Shown here: positions 37,267-38,356 of the stretch, piece after piece
Numbering within the stretch: the stretch's first letter is position 1
Layout: each line of letters begins with the position of its first letter
IMG/VR virus record: IMGVR_UViG_2718217859_000007
DNA length: 45,044 nucleotides
Reading direction: 5' to 3' (one strand)
Origin: a virus
Lineage: Duplodnaviria; Heunggongvirae; Uroviricota; Caudoviricetes
The notes under the pieces: model-generated
Database searches by the model: none
What the model saw: the letters and a program-made list of their open reading frames with translations, nothing else
What the model was told of the DNA's origin: nothing
Position numbers and translations under genes: made by a program

Positions 37267-37767
37267 ATGAAAAGAAAATCCCTGTCAGAGATCGACCTGC
37301 AAGCCGCCCAGAGACTAAAAGAAATCTGGACGGCGAAAAAAAATCAACTAGGGTTAACCCAAGAGCGTGCGGCAGAAATTCTGGGATTTTCGACACAGGG
37401 AGCTGTAAGCCATTATCTAAATGGTCAGACACCTTTAAATCTTGAGGCTGTTATCAAGTTCGCAGGGTTACTGCAAGTTCCTCCCGAGTCAATCAGACCA
37501 GATATGGCCGAGTTGTTACAAATTGTAAGGATGTATCCCCAAGAATCTGGGGAGGACAATGTTGTCACTATATCTGCCGATATGGAACAATCGGAAAACG
37601 AACTTCCGTTTAATATAGACCCCATGGAGCGGGATTTGCTCCAGACGTTCAGGGCTTTCCCCAAAGAAGATAAAGAGAAAATGCTTAAGGAAATGAAGGA
37701 GAAAAAAGAATCAATTGAAGAAATCGTTGCGCGATGGCTAGCTGCGCAAAAAAGTCGTCGCGCCTAA
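37267..37767 (+). CDS. CI-like repressor / PaaR2-like regulator (XRE-family HTH)
   Basis: 166 aa; N-terminal HTH LTQERAAEILGFSTQGAVSHYLNG; divergent from cro-like gene; first gene of operon with the PaaA2/ParE2-like pair. Confidence 0.75.
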   Translation: MKRKSLSEIDLQAAQRLKEIWTAKKNQLGLTQERAAEILGFSTQGAVSHYLNGQTPLNLEAVIKFAGLLQVPPESIRPDMAELLQIVRMYPQESGEDNVVTISADMEQSENELPFNIDPMERDLLQTFRAFPKEDKEKMLKEMKEKKESIEEIVARWLAAQKSRRA

Positions 37768-37784
37768 TCTGAGGAGGTCAAAAC

Positions 37785-37976
37785 ATGAGTACAGCCCTTT
37801 CCCCGATAATTTCTGAATTTGAAACGGTCGAACAAGAAAACAGCTATAACGAATGGTTGCGAGCCAAAGTGGCAGCAAGCCTCGCAGATCCCCGTCCTGC
37901 AATTCCGCATGATGAAGTAATGGCTGAAATGGAAAACCTTATTGCTCAATTAGCTGCAACGAACAGGAGTGAGTAA
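37785..37976 (+). CDS. paaA2: antitoxin PaaA2-like
   Basis: 63 aa MSTALSPIISEFETVEQENSYNEWLRAKVAASLADPRPAIPHDEV.. closely matches recalled PaaA2. Confidence 0.8.
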   Translation: MSTALSPIISEFETVEQENSYNEWLRAKVAASLADPRPAIPHDEVMAEMENLIAQLAATNRSE

Positions 37977-38266
37977 TGCTGCCCATTTTATGGCTACCTT
38001 CTGCACGTGAGGATTTACGTCAGATAGTAGCCTATATTGCTAAAGAAAACCCTCCCGCTGCACGTAGACTAAAAATACGCATTGAAACATCAGTTTTGTC
38101 ACTTACTGAACACCCTTATCTGTACCCACCGAGCGAAAGAGTTCCAAGTCTTCGAGAAATAGTGACTCATCCTAACTACATAATACTTTACCGAGTAACA
38201 ACATCTAACATCGAGATCGTAAATGTAGTTCACTCACGAAGGCAGTATCCAAACAAAAGCTGTTAA
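37976..38266 (+). CDS. parE2: ParE-family toxin (ParE2-like)
   Basis: 96 aa; ParE/RelE-type N-terminus LPILWLPSAREDLRQIVAYIAKENP; start overlaps antitoxin stop. Confidence 0.8.
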   Translation: MLPILWLPSAREDLRQIVAYIAKENPPAARRLKIRIETSVLSLTEHPYLYPPSERVPSLREIVTHPNYIILYRVTTSNIEIVNVVHSRRQYPNKSC

Positions 38267-38277
38267 TCATTTCTGTC

Positions 38278-38303
38278 AAAAACCACCTTCGGGTGGTTTT
38301 TTT
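38278..38303 (+). terminator. rho-independent terminator after repressor-TA operon
   Basis: AAAAACCACC-TTCG-GGTGGTTTTTTT. Confidence 0.8.
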
Positions 38304-38314
38304 CTTGCTGCAAT

Positions 38315-38356
38315 AATAGCATTGCTATTTACATGATTAAATAGCAGTGGTATTGT
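38315..38356 (+). promoter_or_regulatory. OL-like operator pair overlapping PL-like promoter
   Basis: Perfect palindrome AATAGCATTGCTATT (38315-38329) and AATAGCAGTGGTATT (38340-38354); -35 TTTACA, 17-nt spacer, extended -10 TGgTATTGT. Confidence 0.55.

Follow-up and report, generated by a model that had tools for sequence, protein, structure and literature searches.

The immunity region of a lambda-like prophage with a PaaA/ParE toxin-antitoxin pair behind its repressor gene and an immunity specificity other than that of the O157 system

The stretch of DNA analysed here, referred to as the window, comprises 45,044 nucleotides of one strand, read 5' to 3', of the IMG/VR virus record IMGVR_UViG_2718217859_000007 and contains the immunity switch of a lambda-like prophage, in which a PaaA/ParE toxin-antitoxin (TA) pair stands behind the repressor gene (all coordinates are window positions unless a locus number stands with them). 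Taken together, the data argue, with a probability of roughly 85%, for a model in which the repressor binds two operators at OR and two at OL, shuts off the promoters PR and PL, and sustains its own leaderless transcript from PRM, which also carries paaA and parE, so that lysogens would be addicted to the immunity region. The core of this model was published before, for paaR2-paaA2-parE2 of prophage CP-933P (Jurenas et al., 2021; PMC8630535). New here is the immunity specificity, that is, another DNA-binding head and other operators than in Escherichia coli O157. The finding leaves the current understanding unchanged; it brings the known versions of the PaaR-PaaA-ParE immunity region to three, this one being heteroimmune. 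With its clean 15-bp palindromic operator, its lambda-CI-like head and a complete-looking prophage around it, this version should be a handier model than CP-933P. With it one could ask whether a TA pair in the repressor transcript adds stability to the prophage or to the immunity region, and what inactivates a CI-type repressor that lacks an autocleavage domain.

The repressor gene (37267-37767, plus strand) encodes a protein of 166 amino acids with a helix-turn-helix (HTH) domain (Pfam HTH_3, 9.9e-10). After a gap of 17 nt that contains a Shine-Dalgarno sequence (GAGGAGG) and no terminator follow the genes for a PaaA-family antitoxin of 63 amino acids (37785-37976, plus strand; Pfam PaaA2, PF21217, 3.5e-23; PDB 3zbe, PaaA2, 1.8e-23) and for a ParE-family toxin of 96 amino acids (37976-38266, plus strand; Pfam ParE_toxin, PF05016, 3.3e-18; PDB 5cw7, ParE2, 9.5e-37 over residues 1-93). 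The stop codon of paaA (TAA, 37974-37976) and the start codon of parE (ATG, 37976-37978) share one nucleotide in TAATG, suggesting translational coupling, and an intrinsic terminator with a 10-bp stem, a 4-nt loop and a T run (38278-38301, plus strand) would end the repressor-paaA-parE transcript. This arrangement had been proposed in an original prediction made from the letters of the window, and the list of open reading frames (ORFs), the Pfam search and the terminator scan bear out all of its elements, including the 1-nt overlap. PaaA and ParE are 84% and 86% identical to the proteins of the second O157:H7 copy of the locus (L001, presumably paaR1-paaA1-parE1 of CP-933M, the name being our assumption), as compared to 73% for the PaaA2 type and 66% for the ParE of the CP-933P type. 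In canonical two-gene type II TA systems the antitoxin bears the operator-binding domain; the antitoxin of the window has PaaA2 as its sole Pfam domain and no DNA-binding domain.

What kind of repressor precedes this pair? Residues 2-90 match the N-terminal domain of lambda CI in sequence (phmmer versus 1lmb, 1.5e-9; 35-39% identity), and the AlphaFold (AF2) model of this head, with confidence values (pLDDT) of about 85-93, has the five-helix fold of the lambda CI type and superimposes in Foldseek onto 3kz3, 1lli and 1lmb with TM scores of 0.86-0.93 and root mean square deviations of 1.1-1.5 Å. As in lambda CI the N-terminal arm is basic, and Glu33 and Glu37 provide acidic residues at the positions of the lambda CI positive-control residues Glu34 and Asp38, according to our reading of the alignment to lambda CI numbering. 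The recognition-helix residues TQGAVSHY-N are invariant in 22 aligned head-bearing proteins. Residues 93-112 are predicted to be disordered, and residues 119-165 are modelled as two helices corresponding to the PaaR-type C-terminal domain. This tail is 70% identical over 50 residues to the regulator of L001 and 54% identical over the last 44 residues to the PaaR2-type regulator of phage Evi (L002), and in BLASTP searches the alignments begin at residue 91 for L001 and at residue 123 for Evi. The Evi regulator starts with MQKKE, the N-terminus determined for PaaR2 (PMC8630535), and its neighbour is PaaA2. The PaaR2 head structures 7nkv and 8c3k were not matched by the window repressor in a sequence search of the PDB. 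The closest phage relatives of the head are the CI proteins of Stx2 phages (e.g., F039, Lyz12581Vzw), with 52% identity over residues 2-90; these proteins, unlike the repressor described here, are annotated as LexA-family repressors. The full-length repressor had no match among 50,697 phage records. In evolutionary terms the repressor is a chimera of a lambda-CI-type head and a PaaR-type tail.

This architecture has a bearing on induction. Pfam found no Peptidase_S24 domain in the repressor, and the model shows just two helices past the disordered linker. As the S24 autocleavage domain is missing, the prophage is probably not induced by RecA-mediated cleavage of the repressor. The LexA box CTGT-N8-ACAG matches the window twice, both times inside structural genes, with none near the regulatory genes, and an SOS-controlled antirepressor was therefore not identified.

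A search of the whole window for the palindrome AATAGCANTGCTATT found matches at 37192, 37217 and 38340 with one mismatch each and a perfect match at 38315. The expectation by chance is 0.17 per window, and five sites were reached in none of 100 shuffled sequences. The original prediction had placed the palindrome AATAGCA-N-TGCTATT twice between the repressor gene and the cro-like gene and twice past the terminator, which holds with the nuance that one of the four sites is perfect and three deviate at one position. The first pair lies in the 107-bp interval (37160-37266) between these divergent genes: OR1 (AATAGCATTGTTATT, 37192-37206) overlaps the spacer and the -10 element of PR and is kept in six related loci (L003, L004, L005, L006, L015 and L016), and OR2 (AATAGCACTACTATT, 37217-37231), likewise kept in related loci, overlaps the -35 element of PR, abuts that of PRM and is centred at -43 relative to the repressor ATG, the presumed +1. 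The second pair lies beyond the terminator, where OL2 (AATAGCATTGCTATT, 38315-38329), the perfect palindrome, overlaps the -35 element of PL and OL1 (AATAGCAGTGGTATT, 38340-38354) overlaps the PL spacer and -10 element. The centres are 25 bp apart in both pairs, and the placement on PR (minus strand) and PL (plus strand) is the same. A possible weak OR3-like site (ATTAATAATCTTATT, 37240-37254), belonging to direct-repeat family D1, extends to the -10 element of PRM; the corresponding position is better kept in the Shigella sonnei locus L003 (ATTAGCAATCTTATT, three mismatches). Elsewhere in the window, a perfect palindrome that differs at two positions from the operator consensus (AATGGCAATGCCATT, 18054-18068) is located within the head protease/scaffold gene and is probably a chance occurrence.

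The candidate promoters fit this geometry. The PR-like promoter (TTTACT-N17-TATTAA, 37190-37218, minus strand), read from the sequence, would drive the cro-like gene and ydaT. The PL-like promoter (TTTACA-N17-TATTGT with an extended -10 TG, 38328-38356, plus strand) was found in a consensus scan, has the same architecture as PR and would read into ydfA (DUF1391), the gene for the RecE exonuclease and the integrase gene. The same scan reported the PRM-like promoter TTCAAA-N17-TAGAAT (37231-37259, plus strand). In lambda, CI activates PRM from OR2 over a distance similar to the -43 of the OR2 centre in the window. Since the distance from the PRM -10 element to the A of the repressor ATG is 7 nt, the repressor mRNA is predicted to be leaderless. 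In related loci the -10 element is conserved, the 7-nt spacer is variable and a conserved Shine-Dalgarno sequence is missing. Leaderless mRNAs are documented for paaR2 and lambda cI (PMC8630535).

Do the palindromes belong to the TA pair or to the repressor? Seven loci with this head (the window, L003, L004, L005, L006, L015 and L016; head or repressor identity 48-99%) have one pair of palindromes at OR and another at OL. These are all fetched loci with this head except L014. In the loci from E. albertii (L004, repressor 87% identical) and S. sonnei (L003, 77%) the TA pair follows the repressor. In two metagenomic loci (L005 and L006), which encode tandem-HTH repressors of 244 amino acids, the same place is taken by a HipA_2/DUF3037 pair that matches the PADLOC candidate defence system PDC-M66A/B, and in the Salmonella diarizonae locus L014 (L014 3001-4339) by HigB/HigA. 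L015 (L015 3001-3565; repressor 48% identical) and L016 (L016 3001-3996; 255 amino acids) have no cargo, and OL is found 64 and 190 bp, respectively, past the repressor stop codon. The position after the repressor gene is thus a general cargo slot that holds a TA pair, a candidate defence pair, HigBA or nothing. In 44 kb of control loci, made up of TA loci whose heads differ and of PaaA-ParE pairs that stand alone in other proteobacteria, no palindrome was found with up to two mismatches. Instead, loci with another type of head have, at OR and OL, a repeat peculiar to that type: in L001, ACAAT(A/T)AAAAACTGT is present in two copies at each of the two places, and phage Evi carries GTTTAGT-type repeats as described earlier (PMC8630535). 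As the palindromes are found in TA-less loci with this head and are absent from TA loci with other heads, they follow the head and not the TA pair. This comparative evidence strongly suggests that the palindromes are the operators of this head, that the TA pair is cargo between the repressor gene and OL, and that the regulator is, as had been predicted, the prophage repressor and not a dedicated TA regulator. Published experiments on the homologous CP-933P locus agree with this assignment. The 244-residue repressors (L005 2501-4860 and L006 1512-3871) combine the same CI-like head with a second HTH domain, which resembles the regulator head of the second O157 copy, and a PaaR tail.

In a comparison with the heteroimmune L001, nucleotide homology is broken at 36972-37636, which comprises the N-terminus of the cro-like gene, OR and repressor residues 1-123, and again at a short patch at OL, whereas the flanks and the TA pair remain 82-87% identical. 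The recombination joints fall inside the repressor linker, inside the cro-like gene and around the OL patch. The identity of the TA proteins to those of the heteroimmune L001 (84-86%) is about equal to that to the proteins of the homoimmune L003 (85-86%). It could be imagined that PaaR-type repressors constitute a modular scaffold, in which a cargo slot follows upon a conserved tail for oligomerisation and onto which at least three unrelated HTH heads (plus the tandem-head form of 244-255 residues), each with matching operators at OR and OL, have been exchanged; we put this forward tentatively, with more doubt than confidence. If true, it would offer comparative support and a test bed for the hypothesis of Jurenas et al. 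that the TA pair polices recombination in the immunity region, such that only those swaps survive that keep the TA pair.

How could such a region maintain lysogeny? Judging from the geometry of the sites and from the O157 homologue, the lambda-CI-like head would bind the 15-bp palindromes as a dimer, and the helical PaaR-type tail, by analogy to PaaR2, may drive higher-order oligomerisation. Occupancy of OR1 and OR2 would block PR and keep the cro-like gene, ydaT and the replication genes silent, occupancy of OL1 and OL2 would block PL, and repressor at OR2 would be suitably placed to activate PRM. The leaderless PRM mRNA is predicted to include paaA and parE and to end at the terminator (38278-38301), and thus the TA pair would be expressed together with the repressor in lysogens, in the slot that rexA-rexB occupies in lambda. 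During establishment YdaT probably turns on a PRE-like promoter at the junction of the ydaS-like gene and ydaT. As in the O157 homologues, labile PaaA would neutralise ParE; upon loss of the immunity region or of the prophage the synthesis of PaaA would stop and ParE be set free, and the cell would therefore be addicted to the region.

The closest known system is CP-933P (Sp12) of E. coli O157:H7, for which experiments showed PaaR2 to be the functional CI analogue, with YdaS as Cro analogue and YdaT as CII analogue. Footprints on the paaR2-ydaS intergenic region were obtained with PaaR2 and with YdaS, and both proteins repress PL, which has similar operators and is located beyond parE2; YdaT activates a PRE-like promoter and the locus is bistable; PaaR2 has no S24 peptidase domain and PaaA no DNA-binding domain (PMC8630535). 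Moreover, paaA2-parE2 was noted to stand in place of rexA-rexB and PaaR2 in place of CI (Prolic-Kalinsek et al., 2023; PMC9986795). The window shares with CP-933P the order ydaT, cro-like gene, OR, repressor, paaA, parE, terminator, OL/PL and ydfA, the PaaA2-family antitoxin, the ParE toxin, the C-terminal domain of the regulator, the lack of S24, a leaderless PRM transcript, which is predicted here, and YdaT, with 83% identity and an equally placed operator. In contrast to CP-933P, the repressor head is unrelated to that of PaaR2, the repeats are of the type AATAGCA-N-TGCTATT instead of GTTTAGT, two clear and one weak site are found at OR where four inverted repeats were reported there, PaaA and ParE have diverged to the 73% and 66% given above, and the prophage looks complete and not cryptic. 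The second O157:H7 copy has the closest TA pair, a YdaT 88% and a YdfA 96% identical to those of the window and the 70% identical regulator tail, but another regulator head, another N-terminus of the cro-like protein and its own operator. The expected correspondence of the trio to paaR-paaA-parE of O157 is therefore found for PaaA, ParE and the position of the locus, flanked by a ydaS/ydaT-type cro/cII pair and by a PL-like promoter, and for the C-terminal domain of the regulator; it does not extend to the head. Lambda cI-rexA-rexB is alike in fold and sequence of the head, in the basic N-terminal arm, in operators that overlap PR, PRM and PL, in the position of the OR2 centre near -42/-43, in the leaderless repressor mRNA and in accessory genes co-transcribed after the repressor. 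Unlike lambda CI, the window repressor has no LexA-like S24 C-terminal domain and would not undergo RecA-mediated cleavage, its operators are 15 bp long with another sequence, two sites make up OL, unrelated proteins of the YdaS/YdaT type serve as Cro and CII analogues, and the cargo is a TA pair instead of RexAB.

Several observations weigh against the model as a whole. The PR-like promoter escaped the consensus scan on account of the A at the end of its -10 element, and the number of promoter-like sequences in the region, 4 as compared to 3.4 in shuffled sequences, is not in excess. The OR3-like site is degenerate. The S. diarizonae locus L014 has the same recognition helix, yet its sites have diverged. 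For the O157 homologue, activity of ParE2 was not detected in either of the transcriptional states (PMC8630535). Finally, Hallez et al. (2010), as summarised in a review (PMC4803016), reported that the promoter of paaR is partly repressed by the PaaA-ParE complex as well, so that the TA proteins may contribute to regulation.

Could the TA cargo mainly serve superinfection exclusion or abortive infection like rexAB instead of addiction? This explanation, which would leave the repressor/operator part of the model unchanged, is rather unlikely in our view, albeit worth keeping in mind. The TA pair fills the slot of rexAB (PMC9986795), and the relatives with the same head that hold a PDC-M66A/B-matching pair, HigB/HigA or nothing at this place show the pattern of swappable accessory or defence cargo. 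However, PADLOC has no model that matches PaaA or ParE, nor one that matches the repressor, and in O157 the homologous region stabilises an unstable mini-F plasmid by post-segregational killing, that is, it is addictive (PMC8630535).

It is also improbable that the region represents a non-functional relic of a decayed prophage, in which sites and genes are kept merely by recent descent. CP-933P, alias Sp12, is defective (PMC8630535; PMC9986795), and without an S24 domain or a LexA box near the regulatory genes no route of induction is evident in the window. Against decay speak the ORFs, which are all intact, and the operators, which are kept although the repressors are just 48-77% identical, indicating selection. 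In addition, the window has an apparently full set of genes for head, tail, lysis control, replication, recombination and integration.

Originally paaR-paaA-parE was described as a tripartite TA system (Hallez et al., 2010, as cited in later papers), and the trio could accordingly be taken for an autonomous three-component TA system with the HTH protein as dedicated regulator and the palindromes as operators of the TA operon itself, devoid of any role in immunity. This view is already largely refuted and very improbable for the window. The same head and palindromes at OR and OL are found in the TA-less loci L005/L006, L015 and L016; the second pair of sites lies past the terminator of the operon on an outward-facing promoter; and the published CP-933P data favour a CI role of the regulator (PMC8630535). 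Moreover, PaaA-ParE pairs exist in other bacteria without a PaaR-like gene. A ParE-seeded search of genome contigs for related loci returned solely seven distant stand-alone pairs (L007-L013, from Acetobacter, Komagataeibacter, Paracoccus, Sphingomonas and contigs of metagenome-assembled genomes), with ParE proteins 58-71% identical to that of the window and, in the flanks as fetched, no homologue of the PaaR tail, YdaS or YdaT. These pairs served as control and are uninformative on enterobacterial immunity types; they fit a capture of PaaA-ParE by a prophage immunity region. Binding of the palindromes by the PaaA-ParE complex, in the manner of classical type II autoregulation, would agree with the partial paaR-promoter repression mentioned in the review (PMC4803016) but is the least credible explanation, given that PaaA has no DNA-binding domain and that the palindromes are missing in TA loci with other heads and present in TA-less loci.

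On the other side of OR, the cro-like gene (36884-37159, minus strand), preceded by the Shine-Dalgarno sequence GAGGTG, encodes an HTH protein of 91 amino acids (Pfam HTH_3, 5.9e-06) as analogue of YdaS. Its N-terminal HTH part is common only to loci of the same operator type and its C-terminal part is common to O157 YdaS. It is followed by the gene for the CII analogue, a YdaT-family regulator of 141 amino acids (36475-36900, minus strand; Pfam YdaT_toxin, 8.1e-09; PDB 8bt1, CP-933P YdaT, 5.7e-80), which is 83-88% identical to the copies of Evi and O157. At the junction of the two genes lies an inverted repeat TTGATTTTCATGAATCAC (36890-36907) that resembles a YdaT operator, with one mismatch to the published OM consensus TTGATT-N6-AATCAA. 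In the whole window this motif occurs 3 times as compared to 3.17 expected, which is not above chance, and it is the position alone that makes the site with one mismatch meaningful: the OM site of CP-933P was footprinted at the same ydaS/ydaT position (PMC9986795).

Just past the PL-like promoter the untranslated segment 38365-38530 (plus strand) is about 95% identical even in the heteroimmune loci L001 and Evi, which is above the identity of the neighbouring coding DNA. Rfam has no family that matches this conserved segment, which may be a nut-like site, a leader or a small ORF. A structured RNA of the put/nut type in the PL leader (38362-38470) was considered but finds no support, as the segment folds no better than shuffled sequences (z = -0.63). 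For the locus as a whole Rfam reported no RNA family, either in the scan of the whole window at the gathering threshold or in 36300-39000 at E<=1, the latter giving merely sub-threshold matches on the terminator. The mechanically called ORF of the DUF1391/YdfA homologue downstream (38455-38688, plus strand) has an N-terminal extension of 26 codons as compared to the annotated O157 YdfA, which starts with MDTIDL (window position 38533), and the shorter start is more likely.

The window represents essentially one lambdoid prophage of about 45 kb with an apparently complete set of genes. These include genes for a tail fibre, a tail sheath, indicative of a contractile tail, and a tape-measure-like protein, for the major head protein, the head protease/scaffold and the large terminase, and for a Q antiterminator, a RecE-type exonuclease and an integrase. 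The late region (603-22020, minus strand), with its tail sheath gene, is combined with early, immunity and Q regions of lambdoid type, which makes a mosaic of myovirus-type morphogenesis genes and lambdoid control genes. Of the right-hand 25 kb, just 68% is covered by the best match in E. coli, at 93.6% identity, and the element is therefore mosaic. Between the Q antiterminator region and the lysis/late region (27170-27323, minus strand) the prophage carries genes for tRNA-Gly(TCC) and tRNA-Thr(TGT). A full-length match to the Rfam sok RNA (31787-31962, minus strand; RF01794, 115 bits, E 1.1e-25) implies a hok/sok type I locus as second TA element.

How widespread is this version of the immunity region? 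Among 5,426 complete genomes of E. coli, 71 contain the segment consisting of OR and head, including that of an O104:H4 strain. In a separate count the whole 2.1-kb locus was also found in 71 genomes, a set that may or may not coincide with the former. TA homologues of any type occur in 841 genomes, and a cluster of 99% identical repressors is represented on more than 1,000 contigs.

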